Assembly (NCBI GenBank): GCA_019973935.1
Contig: BMAU01016994.1
Span: 880,762 to 944,761, forward strand
From: Trichonephila clavipes
Taxonomy: Eukaryota
Direction: 5' to 3'
Length of the DNA stretch: 64,000 nucleotides
Part shown: piece after piece, positions 17,469 through 62,453 of the stretch
Layout of the letters: each line of letters begins with the position of its first letter
Position numbering within the stretch: the stretch's first letter is position 1
Made by a program: the position numbers and the translations under genes
Notes under the pieces: model-generated
What the model saw: only the letters and a program-made list of their open reading frames with translations
Told to the model about the DNA's origin: nothing
Databases searched by the model: none

Positions 17469-18140
<672 letters not shown>

Positions 18141-19809: not shown

Positions 19810-21283
19810 CCATTTGGGGTTGAGTCCTGGGAGGACCCACTTTTGGTCGCCAAATTTTGAGCGATAAAGGTTACAATATGGTAACCCTTCCATTTCATCA
19901 AAAATTTGGATTTTCAAATCACCGAAAAAAACGGCAACCCTAAAAAAAGTGCAACGTTTTTCGCCTTTTCCGAAAAAACGTCATTTTGACTTCGCTGGAG
20001 AAGGTTTGCTCTCCACCGGTGGTTGTTAAGAATGGCGTGTGAAAGGAAATTACTTGAAAGTGAGGCTACGACAGGTTTCTTTGTGCTCCTGGGCACAAAG
20101 GGGAAGAAAGAGTCGTTAGAATGGTGTATGAAAGCTAATTTAATTGCTTCTCGTTATGAATGTCCGAAGTGTAAAAAAATATGCGTTTGCAAGAGCGAAA
20201 GGGAACAGTTGATGGCTACGAATGGCGTTGCCGCAACCAGTCGAAAGATAATCGCCACGATGTCATTCGGAGTGTGAGAAAGGGCACTTGGTTTAGCGAA
20301 AGCAAACTTGCTATAACTATTATCTTGCGTTTGACAAGATATTGGTTTGGCAAGAGCATGAATGCGTTCGTGGTGAATGACTTGAAAGTTAATAAGAATA
20401 CCGTCGTGGACTGGTATATGTTTTGTCGTGAGGTTTGTATGCTTGCATGTGTGAAAGAGAGTGCGAAACTGGGTGGTGTAGGTGAAATTGTTGAAATTCA
20501 TGAAAGTTTGTTTGGAAAGATGAAATATGCAAAAGGTAGAAGAGTAAATGGGTGTTTGGGGAGTGCAGAGAGAAAGCAAGAAATGTTTTTTCCGTGTGGT
20601 TGAGTCTAGAACTTAAAGAGGAATTACTTAAGGTAATTCATGAATGGATCCTTCCGGGAACCACTATTATTTTGGACTGTTGGAAGTCTTATGACTGCCT
20701 CTCAGACGAGGGGTATGTTCATTTAAGAGTCGACCACAGTCTGACTTTTGTGGATCCCGAGACCGGTGCGCATACCAACTCCATTGAAGGCACCTGGTCT
20801 GCAATTAAAAAGGGCCTTCATAAAGCGCACATCAAGGGTCAATTTGATTCTTACCTTGTGGAATACATGTGGCGGCGATCTAACGGTCACAAGTTGGTGG
20901 ATGAGAATTTTCATAAATTCCTTGCATCCATCGCAAGCGTAAGGTAAGTGCTTTTTAAAATGATTGATTTCATGTATTTCTTCGATTTTATCTTTGCGAA
21001 ACGCCCCTTTCGTCCTTTTTAAAAATGTAAATCATGTTGTACACACTGGTTTTAGAATGCTTTTTTAAAATGAATTTCATTGCTTTCTCCGTTTTTTTCT
21101 TTATTATAATGATTAATTTAATGTATTTATTCGATTTCATCTTTGCGAAACGCCCATTTCATTGCGCCCCCCGCTGACACATGCGCTTCCCAAGAGTTTT
21201 TCGTCATTGACGCTTTTTTGAAAACCTTCCATTTTGGCGCCAAAAACAGCAGTGGGTCCTCCTAGGATTTTACCCCATTTGGT
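19810..21283 (+). mobile_element. Merlin-superfamily (IS1016/IS1595-like) DNA transposon, about 1.47 kb, with terminal inverted repeats
   Basis: 5' end CCATTTGGGGTTGAGTCCTGGGAGGACCCACTTTTGGTCGCCAAA. The reverse complement of the 3' end is CCAAATGGGGTAAAATCCTAGGAGGACCCACTGCTGTTTTTGGCGCCAAA. Internal ORFs carry an ISXO2-like DDE domain. Confidence 0.7.
20023..20947 (+). pseudogene. Merlin transposase coding region, split over three frames by frameshifts
   Basis: ORFs 20023-20277, 20181-20603 and 20552-20947. N-terminal C2C2 zinc finger (CPKCKK). IHESLFGKMKYAKGRRVNGCLG... and WILPGTTIILDCWKSYDCLSDEGYVHLRVDHSLTFVDPETGAHTNSIEGTWSAIKKGLHK match the Merlin/ISXO2 DDE transposase pattern. Confidence 0.65.
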
Positions 21284-32210: not shown

Positions 32211-32620
32211 ACATGATTATTTTGGATAGTAATGCAGTAATTTAATTATAATTAATAAAAATTAATTGATTAAAACTAATTATTCAAAGAATTACAAATA
32301 CAGCCACGTTGGCATCATTTTCGGCGACTTGTGTCAAAACTTGAAAAGGTTTTTTTCTCACATTTTAAAGCGCTCATTTGAGCTGAAATTTCCTATTCAC
32401 CATTGTTTTGAGTAAAAATAGGATAATTTAATTAAAATTAATTTTAACTGAATATAATTATTTAAATAATTACAAATACACAGCCACGTTGGTTTCATTT
32501 TTAGCCACTTGGGTCAAAATTTCAGAAGATATTTTTTCTCACGTTTTAAAGCATTCAGTTGAACTGAAATTTTATGTACACGATTGTTTTGGATGGCAAT
32601 ACGATACTTTAATGATAATT
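32211..32620. repeat. Satellite-like tandem repeat, about 185-bp monomer, 2+ units; a further partial monomer at about 30285-30333 to the left of the LINE insertion
   Basis: Monomers at 32240-32420 and 32430-32610 are about 85% identical. The motif ttttaaagcgctcaattgagctgaaatttt recurs at 30290, 32360 and 32540. The monomer sequence is continuous across the LINE insertion site (...cacatgatta | ttttggatag...). Confidence 0.55.
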
Positions 32621-33224
32621 AATAAAAATTAACTACCATTTAATGTTGTGATTCTGTCATATCTATATACATATTTATATTAATTGTAACTATTTAATAA
32701 AAAGTAGCAAAATAAAGTTTTTCTTTGTTGATGTAGGAATTGACTTAATTTTTTTATATTACTTGTTGTATTGCTTTTAAAATTCTAGTTTTAAGCCCTT
32801 GGGCACTGCAATCAGCTATTGACGTAAATCCCACAAAAAGGACTTCGCAGATTCTAATTTCTTTAGATGCATAATTTTCTTTCATCATGATGTGTCGAAA
32901 AACTACAAGTAAATGTACACAATTAACATGAATTTTTATCATTTGGAATCATGGCCAATATTTCACCAAAAAGTAACTTTCTAATTAAATATCTCTTGCA
33001 TTTCGCATATCCATTGCAACCCAGTTATTAAAAAATAGAGCCGAGAACTAATATGCTGCCGTGGTTTTTCATGGTTAGTAATATTTTATGTAAAACTGTT
33101 TGTAACAGGAGCACCATTAATCCATGTGGATGAACAAGATTTGCTTTGACGATCTGTAACAACCAACAGAAATGGCTATATGGTTTGCTTAAAATAACTG
33201 AATAACATAACTATGGACTTAATC

Positions 33225-34265: not shown

Positions 34266-36575
34266 ATCATATTTAAAATGTAATGCCACAAGATTATCTT
34301 TCGAATAAAAAAATATTCATGTCAATCGAATAATACATCGTTGTTTTATTGCAATTTAAAGTTCTATACCTCTAAAAAAACATATATTCAAAATTACCTC
34401 TATTTGAAGAAGGTGTATTGTATTCTACATTTATCGTATTCTTTAGAATCTTCGTTAAATATTTCTATTTCTAGAGACTGGTCGATCATTTTCTTTTGAA
34501 AATACAAAATTAAATTACCGTATTTACTCGAATCTAAGCCGCACCTCCAATTCTCTACACATTTTTGAGAAAAAAAAATTAAAAATTGTGTAAAAAGTTC
34601 ATTAATAACCGATACGTAAGAATTTTTTTAAAAAAAATTTAATGAGAAATAATAAGTTGTTTATTTTATCAGCATTAAAAACTTTCAAATACGTACATGA
34701 ATATATAATTACTCTAACCGTTAGTATCATGTTTTGAAAATGATCCGCCTCTTCCAATGTCACATCTGACTCCTAAATTTGTGCCAGCATCGCCATTTAC
34801 CCACATGATGTCGTCTTCCGTACCATCCAATGCATTTATTATGCAACATTTTTTATGGAATGTATTATAGAAGAATGTATAAGAATTTTTAAACACTGTT
34901 GATCATTTGTAAGCAAAAACCATATCATTTTGTTTACGCCATCGACGTATATTTGTTTCATCTGTGTCAAATGGACTATCTATACGACAGGCAAGCACCA
35001 AGTAAGTAATCACGTGATTCCGGCTGCAATATCCACACGTGTTTATTCATAACGGGGACTTTCCTATAACTAATTAAAAATGTATGATATCATTGTATTT
35101 TTTGCATTATTCTAGTATATGTATTTGTGTTAGGAAATATATTTTTAACAAATCTTTTATATAATTTTTGCTTTATTCTAATTTATTTATCTAATAAGGT
35201 ATTCGCCTGCTTCGTTAGTATTATCTGGTTAGTGTTAGCTGGGATATTTATTTATAGTTCTTGATACACTTAGATATAGCTTAGTTATTTTAGTTATTAA
35301 TTAAATTTGACTTAACCTTTTTTTTTTATCATCCCTCGTAATTATGGATATTTTTTAGTGATTTTATAGATGCATCTGTTTCACAATGGAAAGCTTTTTG
35401 AAGTAATTTGGCACATAAAATATTTTAGTTGATATGGAAGTATTTGATTCATCTGACGAAAATTAAATTTTTACAACTTCATGATTGCTTATTTTATAAC
35501 AGTATGACTGACCAGTGTCATATATTTAAAATGATCCAGTAATTTTGGGGTTTGATTTGTCAATCAAGTTTTTAAATTTTTTTCTTTGTACTTGTATACT
35601 ACTAGTTGGTGTACCCGTTCTCCACACAGGTGTGAATTTATATATATCGAAAATGTGCTATGCATGACTTTTCTCATTTTTTTCCTATACTTCAGTATAT
35701 ATTTAGAGATGAAAAGTAACAATTTTCTATAAAATATATTATATTTACATCAAGTTTGCCTACCTGCACTTAAAGTTCAAATGAATATTTTATTTAATTG
35801 TCGATCAGTTATTTGATGAAAAAGAATTTTATTTTTACAATATATGTTGCATATAAATACTTTACAATATTATGAAGCATTTGAAGATGTTTGAAATTAT
35901 TCTAATAAAATAACATTCTCCATCTCTGACTGTGATTTATTTACTAATTATCCTTTAAAAGTGTTTTGAAATTTTTTTAGAAATGACTTAAAATAATAAA
36001 AGAAAATACTATTTAACTATTAAGTTAAAGAAATGAATCATGTTAATATATAATTTTTAAGAAATATTCAATGTAATATGATTATCCATTATTATGAGTT
36101 ATTGAACTGCATATAAAGTGCATAATCAGGGCTAATAATTAACTAAATAATTATAATGAGTTATTTCTACATGTATTAACTATTTTTATATTTTTCTCTA
36201 AGTTTCAGTTAATATAGCAAGTGCTGAGAGCCGTTTCAGCATATTAAAATTAATAAAAAGTTACATTCAATCATGCATGTGTACAGAAAGCTTAAATGCA
36301 CTTGCTATGTTAAGCATCGAAAAAAATGCAAAAAAGTTAATTTTTCTGAAAATAACACGCAATAAATAAGCATGGGTATGCGACACTTGGATTACAAATT
36401 AAAATTAATGCGAGTATGAACTATATTAAAAATATTATTTTTTTTTCTTCATATAAAGTGCCTATAACATGTTGATATAATTTTTTTAAATTATACAATA
36501 TTAAGGGAATGTATCATCAGAAAAGGTGCAGTAAATTTCAGAAAAGCAATTTAATTATCCTCAGTTTTAAATATA

Positions 36576-37305
36576 TTGCTGCGTTTTCGGGGGTTCGAAA
36601 TGATTGAAGCCGAAGAGCGGGATCCAAAACAATTTTATTCTTTGCCAAAACAGTCCTCCACAAATTGTAGAACAGGTCGAGAAAGTCACGTACAATCGAT
36701 GAAAATACTGATAACACAGATGCAATACACTAACAAAAACAATAGTAAACACTCAGCACAAAAATAATAACTCAATAAAAGCAATAACACACGCACTATG
36801 CAATCGTCTCTCTCAAGCAGAGAGGTATCACTTGCATGAAAGCTGAGATCTGACTAACTGACTAGCCGGCCCGGGCCCTTTTATACCTTTCGGTCAGAAA
36901 CCTCTTGCACTTGCCAGAATAATCTAGAAATAGAAAGGTCTAGAAAAATCCGGAGCGTACGAGAAAAGCTCAATACATAGTGTTACAATACCGCGATAGG
37001 GTTGCCAGACAGGGTTATTAGGAGCAGGGTTGCCATGGTCGCCAAGCTTATCGCCCACATTTGGCGACATATCGCCAAATTTGGCGCTAAAAATTAAGTC
37101 GCCAAATCCGTCGCCAACTTGGCGCTAGCTGCAATATTTGGCGAGTTTACCATTTAAACCAATGTTAAAGCATGGGGGCCGTGCAATGCAGTGGAAATGA
37201 TATTACAGGTAAACAGGGTTAAAATCACATTAGATACGACAAATTAAACTGTAAAAATGAACACAAATGAGTAGAAACAATTAGAATAAGACTAAATTCG
37301 TAACA
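36576..37305 (-). repeat. 3' LTR of the gypsy element
   Basis: See 5' LTR. Differences: tgctgc/tgttgc at the first bases, one CT unit in (CT)n near 36815, and gcta/gcca at 37088. Confidence 0.9.
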
Positions 37306-37319
37306 TTGCCCCCTCTCAA
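37306..37319 (-). other. Polypurine tract (GAGAGGGGGCAA) immediately upstream of the 3' LTR
   Basis: The reverse complement of 37306-37319 is cttgagagggggcaa, abutting the LTR TG. Confidence 0.5.
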
Positions 37320-37588
37320 GAACTGCACGTCCCGGGCAGTACAACCCTTCATCAGACGTTAACATAATAATAAAGCAATTGATTAAAAACAATTAAATGA
37401 ATATGCAATAATAAACATGTAATACATAGTACAAAATAAACACCTAATGCATAGTACAAAATAAACACGTAATGCATAGTAGAAAATAAACACTTACAAA
37501 ACAATATACAAAATTATTTACAAGATTATTTACACACTAACTTATTTATACAAGACCATGGTCAAAATAAATTACACGATAATTGACA

Positions 37589-38827
37589 CTAAGAATTATG
37601 GCCATAATATGGAGCAAGCCTGTCGTAATGAACGACTCTAGGCTTCGAATTCGTTGACTTACGGATCCGGATTACGACGTCGTTTATTATCTTTAAAATT
37701 GTATAAGGACCGTCCCAATGCGATTGTAGCTTAGGAGAAAGTCCTTTGCGTCGAGTCGGGTTGTAGAACCACACCTTGTCACCTTCCTTGAATTGATGTC
37801 CTGTGGCTTTTGTGTCATACCGAGTCTTCATCTTCTCCGTCCTCAGGTTGATCCGTTCTCGAGCCAAATGGTGTACATCTTCAAAACGTGCCTGGAGATT
37901 CTGCACGTACTCCTCAGGCGATGAAGGTGTATCCGGAGGGCGACCAAACAGCAGGTCACAAGGGAGACGAAGATCTCGGCCAAAAAGCATCTGGGATGGT
38001 ACATATCCGGTAGTCTCGTGAACGGCGCTGCGGTACGCTAGCAGAAAGAGAGGAACTTTCTGGTCCCAGTCTTGTTGGTTCTTGGAGACCATCAGTGAGA
38101 GGTTATTCAGGATGGTACGATTAAACCTCTCCACCATGCCATCTGACTGTGGGTGCAAAGGTGTGGTCTTGGTCTTGTCAATTCCGAGTAGTTCACAGAC
38201 CCCCTTCAATACCGCAGAGACGAAATTTCTTCCCTGATCGGAATGAAGTTGAAGAGGTACCCCATATCTCGATATCCAGTGCTGCACTACAGCCTCCGCT
38301 ACGGTGGGGGCTTCCTGATCCGGAATGGGGTACACTTCGGGCCATTTCGTGAAGTAGTCCATGACAACAAGTAGGTACTTATTACCAGACGCAGTCCTTG
38401 GCAGAGGTCCCTGGATATCGAAAGCGATACGTTCGAAGGGTGCTCCAACATTGTAGCGATGCAGCTTCCCTCGGCTACGTATCTTTGGCCCCTTCCGAGC
38501 TGAACAGGCATCACAGGACTTGCACCACTGTTCCACGTCAGCTCTCACTTTACCCCAGAAGAATCGCTCTCGAACTCGGTGCAAAGTTTTCATGACACCG
38601 AAATGACCTCCTGTTGGGCTGCCATGCAATTCTTTGAGTACCTCTGGGATACGATATCGAGGAAGTACTAATTGCCACCTGAATGTCTTTCCATCCTCTG
38701 ATTCGAATTTTCGGTATAGAACACCCTTCCTGAGATGTAGAGAATTCCAGAGGGCCCAATACTGCTTAGTTGTAGGACTATAAGCCGAGATGTCCTGCCA
38801 ACTTGGTTTATTGCTGGAAGACTCCAT
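37589..38827 (-). CDS. pol segment: integrase (DDE core plus chromodomain-like C-terminus)
   Basis: HGSPTGGHFGVMKTLHRVRERFFWGKVRADVEQWCKSCDACSARKG...IAFDIQGPLPRTASGNKYLLVVMDYFTKWPEVYPIPDQEA...LHSDQGRNFVSAV...TPLHPQSDGMVERFNRTI... (D,D35E). Confidence 0.85.
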   Translation of the reverse strand: MESSSNKPSWQDISAYSPTTKQYWALWNSLHLRKGVLYRKFESEDGKTFRWQLVLPRYRIPEVLKELHGSPTGGHFGVMKTLHRVRERFFWGKVRADVEQWCKSCDACSARKGPKIRSRGKLHRYNVGAPFERIAFDIQGPLPRTASGNKYLLVVMDYFTKWPEVYPIPDQEAPTVAEAVVQHWISRYGVPLQLHSDQGRNFVSAVLKGVCELLGIDKTKTTPLHPQSDGMVERFNRTILNNLSLMVSKNQQDWDQKVPLFLLAYRSAVHETTGYVPSQMLFGRDLRLPCDLLFGRPPDTPSSPEEYVQNLQARFEDVHHLARERINLRTEKMKTRYDTKATGHQFKEGDKVWFYNPTRRKGLSPKLQSHWDGPYTILKIINDVVIRIRKSTNSKPRVVHYDRLAPYYGHNS

Positions 38828-38832
38828 AAACT

Positions 38833-39264
38833 CTATAAGGGTTTAATATCAGGATCCGCCATCTGGTCTTCTCGAACTTTCTCGTCACTCCAGGGATCGG
38901 GTGGCGTCGCTGTTGAAGTTGTTATCTGGCGTATAGCATAGTCATATTTGGTCTCTACTCTGGAACAATGACGACAATTTTCTGGGCATGGTCTTCTTGA
39001 AAGGGCATCAGCATTTCCATGCGAGGAGCCTTTACGATGTCTGATGTCAAAGTAATACTCGTTGAGCCGTTGTATCCATCTGGCTACCTGGCCTTCAGTA
39101 TTTCTAAAATTCATTAGCCAGGTTAAAGAGGCATGATCGGTACGTAGAAGAAATTTTTGGCCATAGAGATAGTGATGGAAATGCTCGATGGCTTTCACAA
39201 TAGCCAGTAGCTCTTTTCGAGTGACACAATAATTTCTTTCCGGTTTCGATAAACACTTACTCAA
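38833..39264 (-). CDS. pol segment: RNase H C-terminal part and integrase zinc-finger (HHCC) region
   Basis: SKPERNYCVTRKELLAIVKAIEHFHHYLYGQKFLLRTDHASLTWLMNF... Confidence 0.75.
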   Translation of the reverse strand: MSKCLSKPERNYCVTRKELLAIVKAIEHFHHYLYGQKFLLRTDHASLTWLMNFRNTEGQVARWIQRLNEYYFDIRHRKGSSHGNADALSRRPCPENCRHCSRVETKYDYAIRQITTSTATPPDPWSDEKVREDQMADPDIKPL

Positions 39265-49289: not shown

Positions 49290-52200
49290 CCTATGCGTTC
49301 CCTTTGGCCCACGCTTCACTGTAGACGGGTGACGGGAGTGAGCCCGCTCCTGCCAATCGGCTTGTGGTACCTCTCTTCAGTGTCCCCGAAGAGACACTGC
49401 TGTAGGGTTAGTGCTGCAGATAAGGGGTGTCAGGTTTACCCGTTGGGCCCCGTTTACATGGACGAAAAATGCCGGCAAAATACCGGGACGAATCCGCTTT
49501 GTACCCGTTTACACGGCGACCCGGCAAAATCCCGGGTCGAAATGCATCTTTCTTGGGACATTTTTCATACCCTCTTTCGACTAGGAACTTTGGGGTAAAA
49601 AGGAGAGTGTTTTCTAATTCTCCCATGATGCATTGCGCCAGAGATTCGTTTATTCAAGATGGCTGCTGTTTTGGATTGCTCGCGTTAGACAACAGAATAA
49701 ATAATAACCCTCATAAACATCTGGGGAGACCAAAACGAATTGGATACAACTGTCCGGGATTCGGAAGTTTACACAAGTGCCCATTTTCAATAAAAATTAT
49801 ATTCCATTCAGGTACAGGGAAGGATGTACATAAATTTATATTTAGTATGTTCTGAATGTATGTTTCAATATTTTAATAAGATGATACATATATTTTAATA
49901 CAGTTTTTGAGATTGATTTAAAAATATTACAATATAATTCTTTTGAATGTACACAAAAATTGCATTTTTTTGTTATTTTTCTTGATTTATCTAATTGAGT
50001 ATTTCCATATAAGAAGTAAAAAATTAGTAATATCTTGTAACTAAATAACTCCATAAAGGTGTATTGAATTTTTTTACTGTGAAAGTTGATATAACCAATA
50101 GAATGTGTGTGATCAGTTTTATATTAACATCCCCTTAAATTCATGTGGATAAGAACTTAAAAAGAAAATCTTCAGTTATGATCCACTTTCACTTAACCAT
50201 TTAATTTTTGTTATTAAAGCAAACCATGATTTACTCTACCAAAAGAGATTTCTTTATACACATATACATACAAAATTATTTTATAAAAGTAGGCTAAGTA
50301 CTACTTTTTTCTCCTCGAAGGATTAAATAATCCCACAATTATAAAACATACTATGAACAAGTTCTTATGAAAACATTGCACATCGAAGAAAATACACACT
50401 TTTTACAAACAAAAATAGTAATTTAGCTTTTTAATTAAAGTTGGTTAATATGAAAGTTTTTGTTTAACAACTAGGAATTCTGAGATGGAAATAAAATTGC
50501 TTTTAACATCATTGAAATGTTTTGGGTATCTGAAATAATCTTATAAAAAAACTAACATTTGATATGCTTTATACAGACTTCCTTCGTAATTATTACCCTT
50601 CAGAAGGTTTGAATTTTTTTTTTAAAAATGTCTGTCTCAACATTCTGAAATAAATTAATTGGATGTTTTTGAATAAATTAAGAAACATGTTTAAAGAAAT
50701 AGGCTTTTAATAAAATTATAAAGTAGAACAAATTAAATTGTTTTCGTGAAAATTTCTCATATACAGTTTTATTTAATAATCATACTCATTTTAATATACA
50801 TCATTTATCGACACTTAATTTTAACATTACATGAATGCACTATAAGTAAATAAAGCATTCCATGATCTGCTATATAAATCAGACTCTGGAAGAGTAACAT
50901 TAAACTATAAGGACAAATCGAGGATCTATCTGCCAATATTCAACATGCATAATATCTTTTACTATTATTATATCTCAATTTTTATCTTATTGATGATAAC
51001 ATCTAATAAAATTCTCTGAAAATCTTATGAATGGCTTTTTGCAATTTATTTACAACAAAAGTATTAATTTTTAAAAATATTTAGAAAAGAGTATTAAATG
51101 TCATTAACCCAAACAAATAAAATGAAACAAAAAAATTAAAGAACATTATCTCCTAAATCAAAGATTTCATAGATAAAAAAGGTCAAATTATGTAGAATTT
51201 CTAAAATGTTCACTTTAGGTTTATGACATAAAAACTTAAATTTTTAAACACATAGTGATTAGGCAATTAATAGTAAACAAAAAATTATAAAAACATTTTT
51301 TTCTTCAAAGTTTCTGCAAATTTTATTTACTCTAATTTCAATACTATCAAAACTATTTTAATCAAATTAATTTTTTTTTTCATTTTTGGATACAATAAAT
51401 TTACAAAAGTAAGATTTGAAATAGTCTTCCCTTGTTTTCAAAGAAATTAATGGCAAAAACTAGTCTTTTAGTCAGCCAACTGTGTGAAATATACCAGAAA
51501 CTAGAAAGCAAAAACCTATAACATTTGTATATAGGTAAGCTACACATAGTATTTTTGAGAAATTGTATACGGTATGGGTCTAGATTAAATGAAATATCAC
51601 AAGAATTTTGAAATTTCAGATCTTACAAACTGGCAGAATTATAAAATCCACTTCTATACAGTCAACTTTCAGAATTTACATAGAACAAATTAGAATACTG
51701 AAATCATGCAACTTATAGAAAGAAGTTGAATAAAAGAAACAAATACATGACATGTTATTTCGTTATCACTGATATGCAACTGAAGTATCATTTTATATAT
51801 TACATTAATACTTTAAAAAATGGAAGATGAAACGACATCAGAAAAAAAAAAAAATTCTGAATTCTCAATCTGAAATTTAATGTTTGAAAATTAATAACAA
51901 TCATTATTAATTCGATAAGTTACCAAAGTTTATCATTAATAAATTAATCACAATGTGTACTAATTGTAAGCAAGATTCTTTTACCAGGGCATTCCTAAAT
52001 TTGATGAAACTTCTCAGTTACCCAAATTACATATGAGCAAAATATTAAATTACTTCAAAGTTTCTCTAAGAAATGCTAAATCAGTACTAGTACCATTCCA
52101 CAAATTTTGGAACATGCATTAAACAGCCGACTAATTTCGCCAAGCAAAAAGACATAACAAATTTTAAAAAAAAACAATTACATCACTATTATTGTTACTG

Positions 52201-54060
52201 TGTGCAAACGTGATCAGGGACAGTTTCTACTATTGGCTGTATATCGCAGCATTTGGCGGTTTTTTATTTTAAGAAATTTGTCGATATTATATATATACAA
52301 TACAAACACCCCAAATTTGTCCCGTAAGCATATGTTACACAAAAATATCAGTGATTTTGGATGATGAAACACTTATTTTTGAAAACATTTCTTTGAAATT
52401 ACCTTTTTTTACTGAATTCTTCATGAATATAAATTATTGTAAACAACAATGTCAAGTTATTCATTTAAGGTAAATAGAGAGTTGAAAAAGGTTGTATTAA
52501 AATTCTGAATATTTCCATTGCTTTCAGAAAGTAAACATCCTACAGAAAATGTCTATATGTAAAGTCGTATTTGGTTTCATGATCCTAATTTCCCATAAAT
52601 ATCATAGAACTGATTTAAGTACACTTCTTGGGTCAATATTTGTAACTAACTCAATGCGACAAATTTATTTAGGTCTTAAATTTATTAGCAGGATAATATC
52701 AATATATATTAGCATTTAGACTTTAATACTTATGTAAAAAAATCCAGAGTATTCTTATGCTTAATACATTTCAGCTGGGGTTGCAGATTTTTTTAACACA
52801 CAATGTTGATATTTCAATAACAAGTGTAAAAGTCTTTATATGAAATTTATCAAAATTATTGAATTTTACATTTTAATTGTGCAAGTACCAATAAATGCAT
52901 ATTTGTTATCCATAGTAAAAAAAAAAGGTACATCTGTGTGAGAAAAATTTGTATCAGTCAAATTCTGGAAAACAAATATGTTAAGAAATCCTCACATAAT
53001 AAATAGATACCACACAAATATTTAATAATAATTTTTTTTTAACTAAAAGAATTATGGATTTAACAATGACTTTTATTTTGATCATGTACAAGAGAGAACA
53101 GGAATTTAATATTCAATGTATGCACACAATTTTATATTCGATAATACACACATTTTAATGCCTTAATTTTTACCACACTCAGAATGTAATTCTCGATAAA
53201 TTATATCTTTTACTAAAATAGTACTGCGAATACAGACTTTCAAAATGTTACATGATTTTTTTATATATAATTTTACAAATGGTAATTTTCATTTCTAATG
53301 TTTGAAAGTGGTATAAATTATATATATATATATATACTTGTTTTAATATGACAGGTATGATAACATATCAGATTTTTGTGTTCTTACTTTAAATAATTAA
53401 ATACAGAAATATCTCTTTTAACTACTCTAAAGATGTGTAAAACAAATAAAAAAAATTTAAGCTAACCTAATATATTTTATCTTTTTATGTATGTTCTCTA
53501 TATAATTTAATTTAAAATAAATTGGTGGCGACGGTTTCTAAATGGTTGGTATTGAAAACAAATGTCGTTCTTATCCATTTTTACTAAACACTCGAATTTT
53601 TACCGGGATATTAAAGAGATTTTTTCCGACAGTCTCGACTTCTTTTACTATAATTGAGCAACCACGTATAGTCAAATACGAAATTTTAGTGGATATAGTT
53701 TAAATGTGCAAGAGCATAGAAATGTTTGGCGGTAAAAAACGAAAACATAATCACATGTCCTCTTCATGATTATCGCGCTAAAAATTCTAGTTGTTTCCAT
53801 GGTTACATTTTACAATCACGTGAATCTATCAACCAATCACCAGATTCTTATGAAAACGCACCCGATTCTCATGTAAACGGGTCGAAAAAATACCGGTATA
53901 ATCCCGGCTTTCATCCGCATTTCGGAATTGCCGGTATTATGCCGGGTTCCGTAAACGGGGCCTAAACGGGTCGAAAAAATACCGGTATAATCCCGGCTTT
54001 CATCCGCATTTCGGAATTGCCGGTATTATGCCGGGTTTTAAACAAGGGGCCTCTAATGCG
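49290..54060. mobile_element. Candidate 4.7-kb nonautonomous element or foldback bounded by inverted GC-rich subterminal repeats
   Basis: 49430-49560 (…cccgttgggccccgtttacatggacg…ccggcaaaataccggg…) is an inverted partial match to 53870-54050 (…ccggtattatgccggg…gtaaacggggcctaaacggg…). The interior 49860-53700 is very AT-rich with no ORFs. Confidence 0.3.
53874..54050. repeat. 89-bp tandem duplication (2.1 units) within the right subterminal region
   Basis: aaacgggtcgaaaaaataccggtataatcccggctttcatccgcatttcggaattgccggtattatgccgggtt repeated at 53874 and 53963. Confidence 0.6.
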
Positions 54061-55324
54061 TTTCAGAAAAAGGAGCTAATTTTTATTAACATGGACTGCT
54101 TAAACTTTGTTTTAAACTAGAATTTTTCATTAGTCTTTTTTTTAATGCTTTTATTCTTAGATCTTGTCTGACTTGTTTGCTTTTATTACTTGAAAACGAG
54201 CTTTGTACGTGAGTTGAAATTTTAACTTTTTAAAAACTGTTGTCAATATTTACATTTCAATATCACATTTTATCAAATGTTTTAATATTTGAACAAATGT
54301 TTGGCGCAGTATAACGAGATTTGTCTCTTGTGCCATAAAACCTCACATTCACTCACTCACTCAGCTTCGATTGATTAATTTTCAAACGCATGTGTTGAGT
54401 CAGTAAGGAAACATTAATTTTAATAATTATTTTTTAAATGTGAATTTTTTTTCGATATTTATAATTTACAAACTCTTTAATTGTAGCATTTTCTCTATGT
54501 CGATAACAATTTTTGCTTTTAGTGTTAAAAGTGATAAATTTCATTAAAAAAAAAATTACAACTTTTAAATTAGTGAAAGATTTTTCCTCTGTGTATATGA
54601 TGAAGTTGAAAATAAAAAATCAAGGCGTAACAGTATCTGCAAAATAAAGATAATGTGACAAATTTATTTATTATAAACTAAGTAAATTCTTTTATATTCG
54701 AATTTGCAGTAATTTCTTTCTTCAGAATAATCATTTATTCCTTCGAAATACTTTCTGCAGATTTCGTTACTAACTACATTTGTAATTTATTTATCAAAAC
54801 AACTGGATAACTTCATTAGAGTACAAAGGCAGATTTTAAAATTTCAGTCTGCCTCACCAAACTATACTAATTTTGAAGGGAGCATGGATGAAAATATATG
54901 GGATACACTATTTACTCTTTTAAACCTTTTCCGTTTTATTATTAGTTAATAAACATACATTTAAAATTTTGAATACAATACAAACACTTAAAAATCTAAA
55001 AGTTTACGAGTCGAAAGTTGAAGGGGAAAACTGTACTTTCCTCATTTTATATAGTTATTGAAATTATTTAAAAAATTTTTGTTTTAAAATTTTGATGTAT
55101 TCCTGGGAATGGAAAAAACCGGAAAATCAGAAACCCTAGTTCAGACCCTTTCCATAGACCAACAAATTATTAATTTTTAGCACAGATATTATGTCTCGGG
55201 GTTTTCATGTCAACTTTTAAAAAAATATTTAATCCCCCTCTTTCAAAGAAGTATTCTGTAAATGCCACTGATTACATGTATTAGAGAACCAAGACTAATC
55301 GTGAATTTTCTCGAAGTTAAATAT

Positions 55325-55440
55325 CGTTGAACCGTCCCGAAAGGGGGAGTACAAACTCGCGTGTCATCCTCGTCACCTGACCATGGTTCCAAATTACGAG
55401 GTCCGTTGCTAACAACCCCGTCAATGTTGCTTAATAATGG
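55325..55440 (+). mobile_element. Divergent SINE fragment sharing the family A central domain
   Basis: gtgtcatcctcgtcacctgaccatggttccaaattacgaggtccgttgctaacaacccc versus family A gtgtcatccacgtcacttgaccatggttcaaaattacgtggtccgtcgccaaaagccc. Tail (ACTC)-like actcactcatg. Confidence 0.5.
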
Positions 55441-57249
55441 TACGTCAACAAATACTCACTCATGCGGCTTGAACAGGAATATAAATTGGGGCTATAATGA
55501 TGATTATAGTCGCTTCTACATCGTTATGAATTAGGGTCTGTATGCGGTAGTAAGAAATTTATTTTTTGCCAAGATTTGCAGTGTCGCTATCGCGTATGAC
55601 AGTAATATTTGTCCGATGGGGTGTTTGTCTATTGTGACGGCGTGACAGGGTAGTGATTACAGTCACACAGCTAATCATTAAAAATCGTTTTATTTCTCGT
55701 ATAAGTAAATATCTAAATTTAAGTTATAACATTACAATCAAGGTCTCAATCATTCCATTTCTTGCAGGGAAGAAGACAATAAAGTCCCATGTCAAAGTAT
55801 TGTCAGGGCTACCAAGTCGTTTTGTGCTTTCTCCTCTTCTCCCCATTCAGTTTTTGGGCATCGCAATCCAGAATTGGATTACATCGTATATTTGTACTAC
55901 GGGCGCTCGCCTCGCATTTTTTTTGTCTACCAAGATCAGGAAACGATAACAGCCTAATCAGTTTTCTTTTTCCTTTCTTCCTAATCGACCCTTTTAAACT
56001 TCAGGGGTTGGCCAACTACACGCCTCTCACAAATTTTACATGCAGCTCCCGCACTTCATTTGCACACCACTGGTGCGAACCGGACAATGGCCCGGTTCCT
56101 CCTGATCTCTCTAGCGACTAAGGCTTCTCCAATATCTGGGGCCTTAATTCGTCTCAGCAGTACTTTTCCGCCGAGGGATACTTCTGCGCCACTCCTTGGC
56201 AGCAGAACTTTCTATTCAAATTGGCTCCGTCAAGGGGGCACACAAAAAGCCTGTGTCTCGTCTGTTTATGGAAGAACAGGAGGCGGTAAATCATGAAGCA
56301 AATAAAAGAGTAATGACTACAAAGCCATTCTCCCAAACAGTTTGCATGTGTTATGCCTCCTGCATAAAAGGCGAACCACCAGTTCCTTTCATAGAGACAC
56401 AATATACCGGGCAGGCAGATAAGCTATCTCTCCCCCAATCTACTTTTCCTGATTCGGGCTGTTTAAATTTAGCATTCAGTTTTCTTCTAGATCAGTTTCT
56501 TTGTTGATAGATCGCTTGAATGCTCCCTTTCATGTCCCATTTCGCTTTTCTCGTTAGTCAGTCGGATCATCACAATTCTTCCTTGTTTCCCAAGAAAGGT
56601 AAGTCTCGCAAATACACTTCAGGGAGGGAATAACCAAATCTTCCATCTTTTCGCCAGAATCCGAATTTTGATGAGAGACCATTACTCCTAGATCACTTAG
56701 TTTAATATCTGACTGCATTATATATCTTGAGAGTTAGTAAAAGGATTAAATCATTATATGGTAAAAAAAAAATTATTATTTTAACAAAAGTGAGTCAAAA
56801 CTTTAGACATTGGATAAATTTGCGAGTTTATATATTTAAATGCTTGCATATTGCTATAATATATATGTATCAACATATAAGAATATATATATGGGTAAAG
56901 AAATACTGAAAAAAATTCTAAACACAAATTTCATATTCGAGAAAATAAGAATATATATATATGCGGTCTGTTTTGAATTTCTTTCACTACGTTTTTTTAA
57001 GTAAATGAATGATTAATGCATATAATTTTACATTTAAGTACACTCATGTCCATAAATTAAGGATAATTTAGAATCACGCGGAAATCGAACTCTAAAATAT
57101 ATCACCTTTAAAATGACTACTCACATCATCAAGAATCATATACAAATTGCAAGAAGCCACCAGACGACACCGATAGTACGTCACAATGACGAGAGTGTAA
57201 GAGGGGTACATATAAGTAATACAGGCAAAGAAGTAAAATTGTTTGTGCA

Positions 57250-58560
57250 AGTACTTTATAAGCCTTTCAGTGCTATAACCGTATAGTTATGACACACATT
57301 TAGATGATTTTTTACGTGGTAGAATTATCGGCCGTCCGGAATGTGAGCGTACCCAGCTGGAAGTATCTGAGGAATTTGGAATCGCCCAGAGTGTCATCTC
57401 CAGGCTTTTGCAACGATTCCAAGGGCATGGTAATGGGAGTAGACGTTACAGCACAGATCGCATCCGAGTTACAATGCCGAATGAGGACCGGTATATTTGG
57501 CAGTTACTACCAAAAGAAACAGACGAGAACAGCATCAGGCCTGTCTCGTCAGCTCTCTTCAGATGCTGGTGTGACAATTTCAAGACAGACCGTTGATTGA
57601 TTGATTGATTGAATATTAACGTCGCACTGTTCAGCTACACGAGGGCTTTTGGCGACGGACCACGTAATTTTGAACCATGGTCAAGTGACGTGGACGACAC
57701 CTGAGCTGGCACCCCCCTCTCCTAACTACCACACCACACCAACGGGAGGACGTTTCAGCTCTCGACAGATTTAACGTGCATCTCTGCCCTACACGGCGGG
57801 TCTTTAGTGGTACTGGGCTCAAGACAGACCGTGAACAGATGCTTAAGGCAGATTGGTCTATATGCTCACAGATCTGTCAGATGTGTTCCACTTACTGCAA
57901 CTCACTTTCGCCTACGGTTAGCCTAGAGTAGAGTACATGCATTTTGTGGACACCACAGCAGTGGGCTTATATGTTTTTCGACGAGTCCAGGTTTAGCTGG
58001 CAGTCTGGTTATCGCCGGACTTTCATATGGATAGCACCAGGTACCCGTTACCACCAAGAGAACATCATTGATAGACTCGTCCCGGTCATGCAGTATTGCT
58101 CATTTGGGGGAGGGGTGACTATTTTGAGTTTTAGAACTGACCTGCATGTTCAGAGTGTAACGATGACAGGCCAAATCTATCGGTACGTCATTCTGGAACA
58201 ACATGTACGGCTGTTTCGGGGTGCCATGGGTGCAAAATTTGTGTTTAGGCAACGCCCACCCACCCCGTGTAGAAATCGTTAATGAATGCCTTCAATCGGA
58301 GGATATCACCCGTATGGAATGGCCAGCATTCTCACCGGACGTGAATCCAGTAGAGTACGTGTGGGATATATTTGGCCGACGAGCTGCGACCACCACTTAC
58401 ATGCCTACCAGAGCTTCAGAGAGTATTGTTTGATGAATGGTGTAATATATATTCCCCAAGATCTGATCCATAATTTGATACTCGGCCTGCCTAGGTGTTG
58501 TACGAATTGTATTGCATTGTCTGGCAAACATGCTATGTATTAATCATCATACCAAGCATG
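57250..58560 (+). mobile_element. Tc1-like DNA transposon remnant (transposase pseudogene) carrying a nested SINE
   Basis: LRGRIIGRPECERTQLEVSEEFGIAQSVISRLLQRFQGHGNG...GVTISRQTV|NRCLRQIGLYAHRSVRCVPLTATHFRLRL, then WAYMFFDESRFSWQSGYRRTFIW, GGGVTILSF, TGQIYRYVILEQHV, and LQSEDITRMEWPAFSPDVNPVEYVWDIFGRR (DD34E pattern). Stops and frameshifts present. The 5' end begins cagtgctataaccg. Confidence 0.75.
57594..57819 (-). mobile_element. 5'-truncated family A SINE inserted into the Tc1 transposase ORF
   Basis: Body plus a (TTGA)n tail (gattgattgattgattgaatattaacgtcgcactg...) lacking the tRNA head. Perfect 13-bp target-site duplication caagacagaccgt at 57581-57593 and 57820-57832. The Tc1 reading frame resumes exactly across the duplication. 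Confidence 0.8.
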
Positions 58561-61500
58561 TAATATTGGTTTTTGTAAATAGGGTTTTTTGTAATTTGCA
58601 CCAGAGAGCAAAAATCGCAATTTTTATTAATGATATCAAACATATAGCATCTTATCTGCTCTTTACCTTTTGTTTAATAAAAAGGCTTTACAAATTAGTC
58701 ACATTTGTTTTGCTTCTGACTTATTCTTTGCCTGAATGTGCATTATTCTTAATTTATGGACCTGGTTCGTGTAATCTTTCAAACAAATAAAGACATTTTT
58801 CTTTTCATTAAATAAAATAAGAGCTTAAAATTTGTTCTTGTCATTTGCCAATAATTAAGATTAAATCTGCACACACACACAAAAAAAAAATTACAAAATT
58901 TAGAATAAATTTATCAATGTACATGTTTATCGAATCCCAAATATAACAAAACAAAGCTAATCATCAAGTTGCGTGCGGTGTGACAATTGATTACACTGTT
59001 GCCGGTTTCTTGATGCAATCGCTTGGTAAGTTGTTAGTACTGATAGATTGTAATTTCTTTAGATAAAAAAGCCCGATTCACACCTACTTTTATCCTGGAG
59101 TTGGACGACATCAATTGGCCACAACTCCTTACATCTTTTGGTAAAAAGAAAATTGCATATGGTTGCATTTTTTGCGCATTTAACTTTTTTCTTTCTTTCT
59201 AATCCGACTATCATTTGAATAGTTTTTTTTCTTCTTCTTATTTTCTTTGTGCAAATGACAAATATATATTTTTAAAAAACATATTGACTAAAAATATAGG
59301 TACATAATTTGAAGCATTTACAACAGAAATATTTATATTTCTCTTCATTAAATAGGTAGGTAAGTAATAGTGAAGTGTTCAGTTGTGTGTGTGAAAATGA
59401 GTTGAATGGGAACAATCTCAGTTTATTTTTTTCGATTTTAAATTTATTCCATTATAGTTAAGTTGTGTTGATGTCTTACATGCAGTATTTTTAAATGATA
59501 TTGAACTCAAAATGTGCTGTACCATAAATTTTGAATATTTCAGAGTAGAACTTTAATCATACAACTAGCCTGTATTATCCCATTTTTGCTCTTTGTTCTT
59601 TCATGGAGATCAGCAGCTATTAAATTGGTGCAGTGTATCTGATAACAGCATGTCTTATATTGCAAACCCATTGACACCTTTTTCTTTAAATTTTGCAATC
59701 CACTCATTGATATTCTGTAAATATTTCATGTAACTATGTAAAAATTTAATATGATAGAATTAAGTATTTGTATCCCATTCTCAAAAGTGTTCCTGTACTA
59801 AGTATCTAATGCTGGTCTTTCTTTTGAATTTGTGAATTATGTCAGAACTGAAACAATAAAAAGCTTTTCTTATTGTTTTAGCTTATAAACTAAAAGAAAT
59901 ATACTAAAGAATATAATCATTTATGAATCTTATGAAACTTTAATAGTGTATTTGAATTATGATATATAACTTGTGGAACTATATTTTAGTGGTCTGTAAA
60001 TTATGATTATACTTTATTATTCATAAATCTGTTCAGTAAGTCATATATGATGTAGAAAATATCAATTTGTATGAATTAAAATTATATATCTCTAAAAGGA
60101 ATTATATGGTTACATTCTTATAAGTGTCAATTATGAATTTCTCATTCTAGAAAATTTCTGAAGTAAAAAAAATAAAACTTCTGTTTTGTCGATATTTCAT
60201 ACACCACAATGTTGTGTTTTATGAAAAAAAATTAACATAAACTTTTTGATTTTTTCCCGTTTTGCTAGTGCAGACAATGAAATTGTCAAAAATGGTACAA
60301 CCGACTCCAAATGGAATATTCCTACCGATAACATTTTATCTCCACATTTCAAGTGAAAAACCCATATGAAAAAATGTTACATGATATTAAAATGTTTATG
60401 CCTCCTAATGTGAAAAATTCTTAAACTAACATTTAACATTCTTTCATGTATATGCTGCATGTTCTCACCAATAAAGTCTGCTTCAAGAAATTCGGGCTGT
60501 TAAAATGGAAAGGTACCAACTTTTTTTTGTTTTTTTACATTCATGATGTAAAGAAAAAAAATTGATTCGGAGTAAGTTATTCACAGGCACTGTAATTTTT
60601 TTTCTGAAAATAGTATTTTGTATTCTTTTACATAAAACGTTGTGCATTAATGTCAGATCTAGAATAATCATAAATTGATCGTACTTATTATCTTGATTGA
60701 TAAACAATTTTCTTCCTTCTATTGTGGTTTTATCAAAGGTGGATAATTCTTGGAACTGATAATTACTGTCTTTATTATAAAGATCTAATTTTTTTGAAGT
60801 TCATTTTTATCCCATCATCTACTTGTCAAATACCTTTTTTCTCTTTATTTAAGGGTATAAAGGGTATATTTTTTTTCTTTTGAGAATTAAGAAAAAATTA
60901 TTTTTTATGATTTGGTGTAAATGTTAACTGAGACTATTTTGGTGATAACACACAAAATATATACAAATAAGTTATTTATTTTGAATAGTTTCAAATTTTG
61001 CTGAAAAAGTACTGTAATAGAACATTGAGAAATGATTGCAGGGGCTCCCAAGCTTCAGAGGCCCCAACATGTGTAAGCAAAATATATTAAGCTATTAAAG
61101 GGGCTTCAAAAAAGGGCCCCCAAGAAATTTTGATACCAGGCCTACTTCAGACTAGCTACGCCATTGCATTCCATACAAAACAGTATTGGTACGATTTTTG
61201 AAGAATGTTCCACTGGAGACTGTACGGGAAGTCTACATCTGCACTTTTGAGATAAAAGATTGCCTAGCATTCATTATATATCAAGGAAATTGAATTGTCA
61301 CATTGGTCATATTTTCCTTTTATTTATCTAAAACAATTAAATTTAAAGGTTATCAATACAGTTGAGTTAACCTTGTAATTCTACATATTTGCTGAAAATA
61401 TCCCTCATCCTATAATGCTTGCAAAGAAACCAATTTTTTTTTCTTGTGATACAAATATTACAAAACTAAAGGAAATGATAAATTTTTGTAGTATTTAGAT

Positions 61501-62292: not shown

Positions 62293-62453
62293 ATGGCACC
62301 TCCAAAGGATTCAAATGCATCTTTCAAAGGGCACTCTGAGGAAAGCATCTTTCGAATTCCACCTTATAAATATATGCATGTTCTGGATCAAACAACAAAT
62401 ATAACTAGAGTTGAAATTGGACCAAAGACTTATATTCGTCAAGAAAATGAACG
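62293..62453 (+). CDS. MVP: First coding exon of major vault protein (MVP)
   Basis: [54 protein letters not shown] matches the conserved MVP N-terminus ([36 protein letters not shown]). GT donor (cg|gtatgg) at 62454; the intron continues beyond the window end. Confidence 0.85.

Follow-up and report, generated by a model that had tools for sequence, protein, structure and literature searches.

Two inverted GC-rich islands lie inside a ~5.2-kb block that interrupts a SINE-like repeat in the spider Trichonephila clavipes

The DNA described here belongs to a 64-kb stretch of the T. clavipes genome ("the window" below) and is intergenic, lying upstream of the major vault protein gene (MVP). The T. 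clavipes window has 44 kb between NACA and MVP, where N. pilipes has 24 kb and Caerostris about 6 kb, so this interval is lineage-specific repeat fill. The EMC1 open reading frame of the window is 100% identical to GFV75472.1. The features of the region, which centre on a SINE-like repeat called P, are as follows, in order along the window:

48548–48559 (+): left copy of the 12-bp target duplication of P, TCAGCTTCGATT, abutting the 5′ start of P
48560–49057 (+): 5′ and middle part of P, 80–82% identical to N. pilipes P copies in a multiple alignment
48648–48919 (+): nested SINE-like retroposon of 272 bp that interrupts P, with an (ACTC)n tail
49047–49057 (+): left copy of the junction direct repeat, AAATATTTTAA
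49058–54274 (unstranded): inserted block of ~5.2 kb that splits P and holds both islands and the interior; borders ±15 nt
49212–49437 (+): outer part of the left island, GC-rich, without counterpart in the right island, with a degenerate module at 49219–49241
49432–49545 (−): left array, two diverged modules of ~49–61 nt (49493–49541 and 49432–49492)
49546–49810 (+): inner part of the left island, CpG-containing, no counterpart in the right island
49811–53519 (unstranded): AT-rich, non-coding interior; GC 0.24, CpG observed/expected 0.53
53520–53872 (+): inner part of the right island, CpG-rich, not shared with the left, with a degenerate module at ~53593–53613
53874–54051 (+): right array, two 89-bp units (53874–53962 and 53963–54051)
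54243–54270 (+): 13-nt tandem repeat (TRF), 2.1 copies of TCAATATTCACATT, stopping four bases short of the block's right border
54275–54285: right copy of the junction direct repeat, AAATGTTTTAA
54275–54360 (+): 3′ part of P, TGTTTGGCGCAG...CACATTCACTCACTCAC and a (TCAC)n tail, 82.6% identical to N. pilipes P
54361–54372 (+): right copy of TCAGCTTCGATT, abutting the 3′ tail of P

The P repeat (48560–54360) has a perfect 12-bp target duplication and is split by ~5.2 kb of DNA; the window has just two copies of the 12-mer TCAGCTTCGATT, starting at 48548 and 54361. Its 5′ and middle part is made up of two ~68-nt units (48566–48634 and 48923–48990) and a T-rich stretch, and then reads ...GTCCAGACTACAG. 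The 272-bp SINE sits between the two copies of a perfect 16-bp duplication, TCCTTTTCCCAAGGGG (48632–48647 and 48920–48935), a 16-mer that is likewise found only twice in the window, and an N. pilipes P copy is continuous where this SINE interrupts the window's P. Because the 12-bp duplication of P and the 16-bp duplication of the SINE are both perfect, both events must be recent. Motifs resembling the pol III A box (48654–48664) and B box (48696–48707) were spotted by eye in the nested SINE; neither ARAGORN nor Rfam gave a tRNA match for it, and Rfam returned only a chance snoRNA match from 48400–49100. Further copies of the SINE lie at 46580–46864, 55339–55462 and 57593–57820.

The borders of the larger interruption were placed where homology to uninterrupted P copies breaks off: three N. 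pilipes copies run unbroken through ...ACAGTTTAATCTT-GTTTGGCGCAG..., and the window's P has ~5.2 kb exactly there. These reference copies are paralogs from another species, and the orthologous N. pilipes spacer, which is unalignable around the block, supplies no empty site. The direct repeat at the junctions matches at 10 of 11 positions; it is AT-rich and of uncertain length, has p ~0.05 as estimated from repeat counts, and comes from a pair of ~200-nt junction regions that share six repeats of 11 nt or longer, each with no more than one mismatch. The initial annotation had proposed a composite segment bounded by the two islands, and one half of that proposal stands: a single discrete 5.2-kb block does hold both islands and the interior, with its modules subterminal and inverted. 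The islands are not its borders, since the block extends ~160–230 nt outside them.

The islands themselves are as GC-rich as had been claimed, with GC contents of 0.526 for the left (49290–49620) and 0.432 for the right (53730–54060), against 0.24–0.252 in the interior and 0.23–0.26 in the flanks; the surroundings are AT-rich, at about 75% AT as measured and not the 80% first given. The CpG observed/expected ratio is 1.5–1.7 in the arrays and 1.6–2.0 in the inner part of the right island, compared to 0.73 for the whole window. The head-to-tail duplication reported in the right island is real: its two 89-bp units agree at 83 of 89 positions, the first 75 nt being identical and the six differences all falling at unit positions 76–83, and TRF reports 100% matches across 53874–54037. 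Each unit is composed of 45–49-bp sub-units and holds two CCGG-N7-CCGG boxes and one (G)TAAACGGG(GCC) box; duplications of this kind are ordinary for minisatellite-like arrays and tandem duplications inside transposable elements. CCAAT and CACGTG boxes are present in the right island. This island also shares a 12-mer, AAATGTTTGGCG (53720 and 54295), and an 18-mer with P, neither of which is significant against shuffles.

The motif set described as common to both islands is confined to them within the 64 kb and occurs far more often than chance predicts. There are four occurrences of GTAAACGGG in the window versus 0.19 expected (two on the minus strand of the left island, two on the plus strand of the right), six CCGG-N-A-N5-CCGG sites versus 0.02 expected, and six occurrences of CCGGTATTATGCCGGGTT with at most three mismatches versus 0.00 expected, and all (G)TAAACGGG sites of the window lie in the islands, two on the minus strand of the left one and three on the plus strand of the right one. 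The best oriented block, CCGGTATT(T/A)TGCCGG, a spacer and GTAAACGGGGCC(C/T)AA(A)CGGGT, is inverted between the islands, in agreement with the orientation originally assigned to them, while an exact 10-mer, CGGGTCGAAA, has the same orientation in both. Similarity between the islands is limited to about 110 nt (49438–49545 versus 53870–54051; 67–75% identity, gapped), and the remaining ~400 nt of each is unrelated to the other.

The shared sequence consists of short arrays of a CpG-rich, partly palindromic module of 45–49 bp, in which short motifs are kept exactly from copy to copy and the spacers differ. Each module of the left array, read on the minus strand, has CCGG-N7-CCGG followed by GTAAACGGG, at a module spacing of 49. 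Since the units are quasi-palindromic, nhmmer matches the left array to the right one in both orientations (E ~2e-3) and aligns the right array with the reverse complement of itself at E = 3e-6, which leaves the relative orientation of the islands partly ambiguous. The idea that the arrays form hairpins or cruciforms was rejected, as their DNA folds are no more stable than those of shuffled sequence (z from 0 to −1.75). The module did not turn up in the N. pilipes (44 kb) or Caerostris (23 kb) sequence searched.

The block yielded no TIRs, LTRs or ORFs and no match to Pfam or Rfam, and Rfam gave nothing at gathering thresholds for the whole window. Comparing the block ends (~49058 and 54274) in inverted orientation gave no more than 12 matches in 16, in AT-rich sequence, and no significant alignment; there is no terminal direct repeat, and the inverted repeats of at least 18 nt inside the block are low complexity only. 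Scans for TIRs combined with duplications gave results within random expectation for the composite, for each island alone and for the block ends. The absence of a transposase ORF between the islands, noted at the outset, holds (the longest interior ORF is no more than 56 aa, and no Pfam domain appears in six frames), and the only repeat match of the interior is that of 50447–50519 to 43323–43399. About 150–230 nt separate each island from the block end, the left island beginning 154 nt and the right one stopping 218 nt from it. Neither a poly(A) nor a (TCAC)n tail like those of neighbouring retroposons is present in the block, and because poly(A), (TCAC)n tail, TIR and LTR are all missing, no class can be assigned to it.

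Elsewhere, in the N. pilipes sequence and the protein database searched, the block was found as fragments only, one in N. pilipes and one in T. clavipes. The N. pilipes piece is a non-syntenic homolog of left-island positions 49282–49362 (blastn 74% over 73 nt, nhmmer E = 2.1e-5, collinear alignment); only ~80–160 nt of the block has a homolog there, and about 110 nt ahead of it lie a stretch weakly resembling P and a copy of a SINE. This adjacency hints at a more complicated history, for example a long P variant or a site preference. In T. clavipes, left-island sequence 49458–49810 recurs in the first ~110 residues of the protein GFS97487.1, encoded on another contig, which continues into BEL/Pao pol (protease and reverse transcriptase; Peptidase_A17, 3e-49); this gene model starts in left-island sequence and has its GT donor at 49811. 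Its N-terminal segments are each identical to one of the three plus frames of the left island, from which we infer, on the protein, that the underlying copy differs only by six indels (18, 8, 1, 1, 1 and 1 nt), and it may be a haplotig of the same locus, not a second copy. A six-frame search of both islands against 5.8 billion proteins returned only GFS97487.1 for the left island and nothing for the right. Pattern scans gave no matches in metagenomes or viral contigs and four single matches in 596 Gb of bacterial and archaeal genomes, where ~4 are calculated to occur by chance, and a microbial or viral origin was accordingly rejected. A literature search for the motif strings yielded primers and unrelated matches only.

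The explanation that we favour, at a probability of roughly 45%, is that the islands are two subterminal regions of one ~5.2-kb non-coding interspersed repeat nested in a young P copy, so that islands and interior make up a single non-autonomous insertion of unclassified type, or else a block that P brought along. P landed with its 12-bp target duplication; afterwards the 272-bp SINE, with a 16-bp duplication, and the 5.2-kb block broke into it, unless the block was already inside the P copy that was retroposed here. Under either order of arrival the islands and the interior moved together at least once. The ~11-bp junction repeat suggests that the block integrated at a staggered cut, as it is comparable in size to the duplications flanking its neighbours (12 and 16 bp), and a block without terminal inverted repeats fits retroposition better than cut-and-paste transposition. 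It resembles LINE-dependent retroposons (SINEs and composites) in having no TIRs or LTRs, a duplication of ~11 bp of the variable kind, a non-coding sequence and a short tandem repeat at one end, but differs from them in its size of 5.2 kb and in having no poly(A) or (TCAC)n tail and no recognisable pol III head. The 45–49-bp CpG-rich modules could be multimerised recognition or regulatory sites of the element, and their number probably changes by slippage or unequal exchange, given the 89-bp duplication and the 18-nt difference in left-array length in the second T. clavipes copy.

A less probable but serious alternative is a nest of insertions, a first into P and then independent ones, in which the islands would be separate, related short repeats that face opposite ways by chance. 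That the islands are alike only over the ~110-nt module array and unrelated otherwise, and that the N. pilipes homolog spans only a piece of the left island, speaks for such a nest. GC-rich repeat relics in an AT-rich background are common here, and an unrelated SINE pair (46587–46864 and 48644–48920), inverted, 89% identical and 1.8 kb apart, did arise by independent insertion; in T. antipodiana, transposable elements make up 57% of the genome and unclassified repeats 22% (PMC7976613). However, neither island alone is bounded by a target duplication or a terminal structure above chance, and the modules occur at just two places in the 64 kb and nowhere in the N. pilipes and Caerostris sequence. 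It would be a coincidence for two chance neighbours to lie 4.3 kb apart within a single interrupted SINE of 300 bp that has kept its duplication perfect, and one insertion is more parsimonious than several independent large ones into so recent a 300-bp target.

We think it improbable that the block is not mobile at all and represents a duplicative insertion of DNA into P (a copy of another locus made by repair or replication) or a set of host regulatory modules, resembling CpG islands, upstream of MVP, such as a pair of promoters or insulators. The high CpG ratio of the arrays, the exact motifs among varying spacers, the CCAAT and CACGTG boxes, the gene model that begins in the left island and the near-identical copy on another contig are all compatible with such an origin. 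Against it, the modules are missing from the 6-kb spacer of Caerostris and from all but ~2 kb of the N. pilipes NACA–MVP spacer and so are not conserved regulators, and the block is located within a young retroposon, with part of its left island repeated at a non-syntenic N. pilipes site. We put about as little weight on a bolder proposal, that the block is a recently active and so far undescribed kind of non-autonomous element without TIRs, LTRs or poly(A). Such an element would make an ~11-bp duplication on integration, would be recognised through the inverted module arrays near both of its ends, and might prefer to land in, or travel with, the P SINE, a preference suggested by the similar adjacency in N. 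pilipes, which hints at an association with P.

The foldback or large non-autonomous TIR (class II) element suggested by the initial annotation, ending at the islands (~49219/49290 to 54051/54060), is very unlikely. The block does recall foldback (FB) elements in having inverted, tandemly sub-repeated GC-rich sequence near both ends of a non-coding segment, and the outermost degenerate modules (49219–49241 and 54026–54048) match when inverted (~18 of 26) and both adjoin TAA, but TAA at these places is at chance level. Neither the island edges nor the block ends have terminal inverted repeats: the best candidate at the island edges measures 14 nt and has two mismatches, versus a random mean best of 13.3, and candidates chosen first by duplication reach 7 of 12 TIR matches versus a random mean of 7.1. 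The supposed long inverted arms are arrays of ~110–180 nt that are ~70% similar, unlike the long homogeneous arms of foldback elements, and have the hairpin stability of shuffled sequence; they are subterminal, with 150–220 nt of unrelated AT-rich DNA outside them that homology to P assigns to the insertion on both sides, and no duplication above chance lies at the arms or the island edges. Class II elements leave duplications of fixed length or sequence (8 bp for hAT, 9 bp for Mutator and FB, TWA for PIF/Harbinger and TA for Tc1/mariner); the 10/11 junction repeat (AAATATTTTAA and AAATGTTTTAA) is of uncertain length in AT-rich sequence.

As in Ac/Ds-type hAT elements, clusters of a motif containing AAACGG, the hexamer repeated in Ac/Ds subterminal regions, lie in opposite orientation a few hundred bases from both ends, and the rest is unalike (PMC3260210). 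Multiple copies of a short motif are thus present subterminally at both ends, where they would be putative transposase-binding sites, but the block has no 11-bp TIR or 8-bp duplication at any candidate end. A PIF/Harbinger-like reading, with GGCCCCGTTTAC as a TIR beside a TAA duplication, was rejected: the sequence adjoining the box belongs to the conserved module, and the TAA flanks do not exceed chance. Helitrons begin with 5′-TC, end in 3′-CTRR after a GC hairpin and insert between A and T without duplication; by eye, A|TC is possible at 49063/49064, but the right junction lacks CTRR-T, and a CTAA-T at 54053–54057 is not at the block end. A SINE or tRNA-derived identity of the islands, which would call for a tRNA-, 5S- or 7SL-related head, a simple-repeat or A-rich tail and a flanking duplication, was rejected (ARAGORN found no genes, and Rfam gave no match at E up to 1 in 49000–54400). 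Finally, BEL/Pao solo LTRs or pieces of such LTRs, with the 89-bp duplication as an enhancer-type U3 repeat, are a most doubtful identity for the islands. GFS97487.1 does join left-island sequence to BEL/Pao protease and reverse transcriptase, and 53723–54065 is bounded by TG...CA and a 4-bp GAAA duplication; LTR elements have TG...CA termini with a 4–6-bp duplication, and direct repeats when complete. But such a combination arises in 68% of random placements and has no left-island counterpart, the islands face opposite ways and differ outside the module, the window contains no BEL/Pao sequence, and the indel-only differences suggest a chimeric gene model built on an assembly copy of this very sequence.

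The observed pattern is best read as unclassified transposon debris and not as a foldback transposon. The single nested repeat that we favour matters mainly for annotation: the striking inverted GC-rich islands are a nested repeat structure in an AT-rich spider genome, whose true borders become visible only through comparison of the SINE around it with further copies of that SINE. A role in gene function is not evident, and the DNA between NACA and MVP is lineage-specific fill. If the block proves to be multi-copy, the ~22% of unclassified Trichonephila repeats would gain a large non-autonomous element, and the chimeric T. clavipes gene model GFS97487.1 would also be explained.

The two GC-rich islands, left (49290-49620) and right (53730-54060), have GC contents of 0.526 and 0.432, respectively, against 0.23–0.26 around and between them, and the initial annotation was correct in describing them as GC-rich, as sharing a motif set, as carrying a head-to-tail 89-bp duplication on the right and as having no transposase ORF between them. 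The duplicated units have exact boundaries (53874-53962 and 53963-54051) and are identical at 83 of 89 positions, with every difference within the final 14 bases. Scanning of the window found GTAAACGGG four times (0.19 expected) and CCGG-N-A-N5-CCGG at six sites (0.02 expected), none of them outside the two islands. Between the islands there is no ORF longer than 56 amino acids and, in a search of six frames, no Pfam domain. Other GC-richer patches of the window hold local tandem or near-tandem duplications at 32238-32623 and 20952-21160 (~200 nt at 78% and 60 nt at 88% identity, respectively).

The likeness between the islands is far narrower than "inverted 330-bp islands" would imply: it is confined to 49438-49545 and 53870-54051, which align at 67–75% identity with gaps. 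These portions are arrays of a CpG-rich module of 45–49 bp in which a CCGG-N7-CCGG box is followed by a variable spacer and then by GTAAACGGG; the left array has two diverged modules, the right array has the two 89-bp units, both of which consist of two sub-units, and the CpG observed/expected ratio of the arrays is 1.5–1.7. Because the units are quasi-palindromic, nhmmer aligns the left and right arrays in both orientations and also reports a match between the right array and its reverse complement. The description of the islands as mutually inverted copies holds for the best oriented shared block, which is inverted (CCGG box, 14/15; GTAAACGGGGCC(C/T)AA(A)CGGGT, ~21/23), but not for the 10-mer CGGGTCGAAA, which has the same, direct orientation in both islands. 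Single-strand folds of the arrays are no more stable than those of shuffles. No carrier of the module was found in microbial or viral sequence, and the module sequence was not found printed in the literature searched.

The genes and SINE-like repeats of this region are as follows:
14095-16827, minus strand: EMC1, intronless
17469-18140: NAC-alpha (NACA)
48560-54360: P, a SINE-like repeat with a (TCAC)n tail at its end
48648-48919: nested SINE-like element of 272 bp, inside P, with the perfect 16-bp duplication TCCTTTTCCCAAGGGG on both sides
62293-62478: first exon of MVP, the major vault protein gene

The EMC1 ORF is 100% identical to T. clavipes GFV75472.1 over 910 residues, and its Nephila pilipes ortholog is 92% identical to it; the EMC1, NACA and MVP identities thus place the islands, and the inserted block that holds them (below), in the NACA–MVP intergenic spacer of a golden orb-weaver. 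EMC1 is one unbroken ORF of 910–914 codons in T. clavipes, N. pilipes (locus L006, 10001-12733) and Caerostris (locus L007, 10001-12745), in contrast to the general wealth of long introns in these three genomes, and its CpG observed/expected ratio of 0.29 (window, 0.73) is a depletion that resembles gene-body methylation. The spacer lengthens from ~6 kb (Caerostris extrusa) through ~24 kb (N. pilipes) to ~44 kb (T. clavipes, 18140-62279) and is mostly lineage-specific fill; between the window and the N. pilipes (L006/L001) and Caerostris (L007) loci the gene order is conserved and hardly any spacer sequence can be aligned. A Ty3/gypsy element and the remnant of a Tc1/mariner element are also present in the window. 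The former, an apparently young LTR retrotransposon (36575-43206, minus strand), has LTRs (36575-37305 and 42474-43206) that are 99.3% identical over 733 bp, and its gag, protease, RT, RNase H and integrase ORFs are fragmented into several pieces; the latter is a degenerate transposase remnant (57300-58500; DDE_3, E=4e-5 for ORF 58203-58433) with a ~270-bp SINE-like copy (57593-57820) inside or beside it.

The window was aligned with 44 kb of N. pilipes DNA (loci L001 and L006), and what aligns around the islands is repeat copies, not orthologous sequence. P is flanked by the 12-mer TCAGCTTCGATT at 48548 and 54361, which is present nowhere else in the window, and from their perfect 12- and 16-bp duplications P and the 272-bp SINE are therefore recent arrivals. 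Three N. pilipes copies of P are short and continuous (record positions 58200-58560, 61302-61433 and 84547-84774), and N. pilipes P is unbroken at the site of the window's 272-bp SINE. Members of the P family combine two tandem units of ~68 nt with a (TCAC)n tail; 3–5 copies or fragments lie within the 44 kb of N. pilipes, so nephilid genomes probably carry the family in great abundance. The ~270-bp SINE-like family has four window copies (46580-46864, 48648-48919, 55339-55462 and 57593-57820), pol III A-/B-box-like motifs and an (ACTC)n tail; neither Rfam nor ARAGORN recognised a tRNA in it, and its reverse strand carries the ORF "ATDHVILNHGQVTW...", a frequent contaminant of spider protein sets.

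In window P, ~5.2 kb separates ...GTCCAGACTACAG (to 49044) from TGTTTGGCGCAG... (from 54298); at the same point the three N. pilipes copies all run on without a break as ACAGTTTAATCTT-GTTTGGCGCAG. A direct repeat lies at the two break points, AAATATTTTAA (49047-49057) and AAATGTTTTAA (54275-54285); it is AT-rich, and its chance probability is estimated as ~0.05 given its constrained position. The block (~49058-54274) encloses both islands and the entire interior, with 154 nt between its left end and the start of the left island and 218 nt between the end of the right island and its right end. Its ends have no terminal inverted or direct repeats, and inside it there are no inverted repeats except low complexity, no ORFs, no domains and no Rfam match; its interior has background composition, and a 13-nt unit, repeated twice, lies 4 bases from its right end. 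The foldback or TIR element first proposed is thus partly borne out: one inserted block holds islands and interior, but the type is not supported, and the borders differ from those proposed.

Parts of the block are demonstrably repeated DNA. Positions 49282-49362 have a homolog (74% identity) in N. pilipes at a place that is not syntenic, ~110 nt past a weakly P-like stretch and a 272-bp SINE copy, and 49458-49810 corresponds to the N-terminal ~110 residues of the T. clavipes gene model GFS97487.1, which is on a contig whose length differs from that of the EMC1 contig and runs on into a BEL/Pao pol that the window lacks. Each segment of this N-terminus matches one of the three window frames exactly; judged from the protein, the two appear to differ by nothing but indels, one of them of 18 nt within the left array, as would be expected of a second copy of very recent origin or of a haplotig in which long reads left indel errors. 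The model, annotated "integrase catalytic domain-containing protein", is chimeric, its first ~110 residues being a frame-hopping translation of the non-coding left island spliced to BEL/Pao pol.

The block may have entered P after P and the 272-bp SINE arrived, or may have come along with P; in both cases the islands and interior moved as one piece at least once. We tentatively favour, at a probability of about 0.45, one unclassified non-autonomous insertion with arrays of the same module subterminal at both ends in opposite orientation. A nest of separate insertions with independent islands would account for their differences outside the module and would parallel the unrelated SINE that forms an inverted pair nearby, and we consider it possible but rather unlikely. 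A non-mobile origin or host regulatory role is improbable, as the modules are absent from nearly the whole N. pilipes spacer and from Caerostris. A foldback or TIR element terminating at the islands is very hard to sustain, since the best TIR between their outer edges is 14 nt with 2 mismatches (random mean best 13.3, random maximum 19), shared 7-/8-mers taken as candidate duplications give a best terminal match of 7/12 (random mean best 7.1), and TIRs or duplications of either island by itself do not exceed chance; by the refuting condition set out with the initial annotation, an element of this kind ending at the islands fails. An origin of the islands as solo BEL/Pao LTRs is just as implausible: around 53723-54065 there is a TG...CA pair flanked by a 4-bp duplication, but 68% of random placements show this pattern, and BEL/Pao pol is absent from the window.

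The favoured single insertion is similar in layout to Ac/Ds, with its subterminal AAACGG clusters (PMC3260210), and its arrays resemble foldback arms, but searches of the block and islands gave neither the TIRs nor a clear case of the duplications that define both. In size the junction repeat is comparable to the duplications of the retroposons next to it, and its size and the absence of TIRs therefore fit staggered-cut or target-primed integration, by either of which the block may have entered, better than cut-and-paste. Among known kinds, a long LINE-dependent non-autonomous retroposon offers the nearest working analogy, but the tail that defines such elements is missing from the block, and with no recognisable 3' tail we leave the block unclassified. 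The arrays combine short motifs kept exactly with spacing that varies, a high CpG ratio and differences in copy number; they resemble recognition or regulatory sites, and may be such sites multimerised, expanding and contracting by slippage. Published Trichonephila genomes are ~57% transposable elements, with unclassified repeats making up ~22% of the genome (PMC7976613), and the block, as unclassified repeat DNA in a nested arrangement, is an ordinary kind of object for a spider genome rich in repeats.
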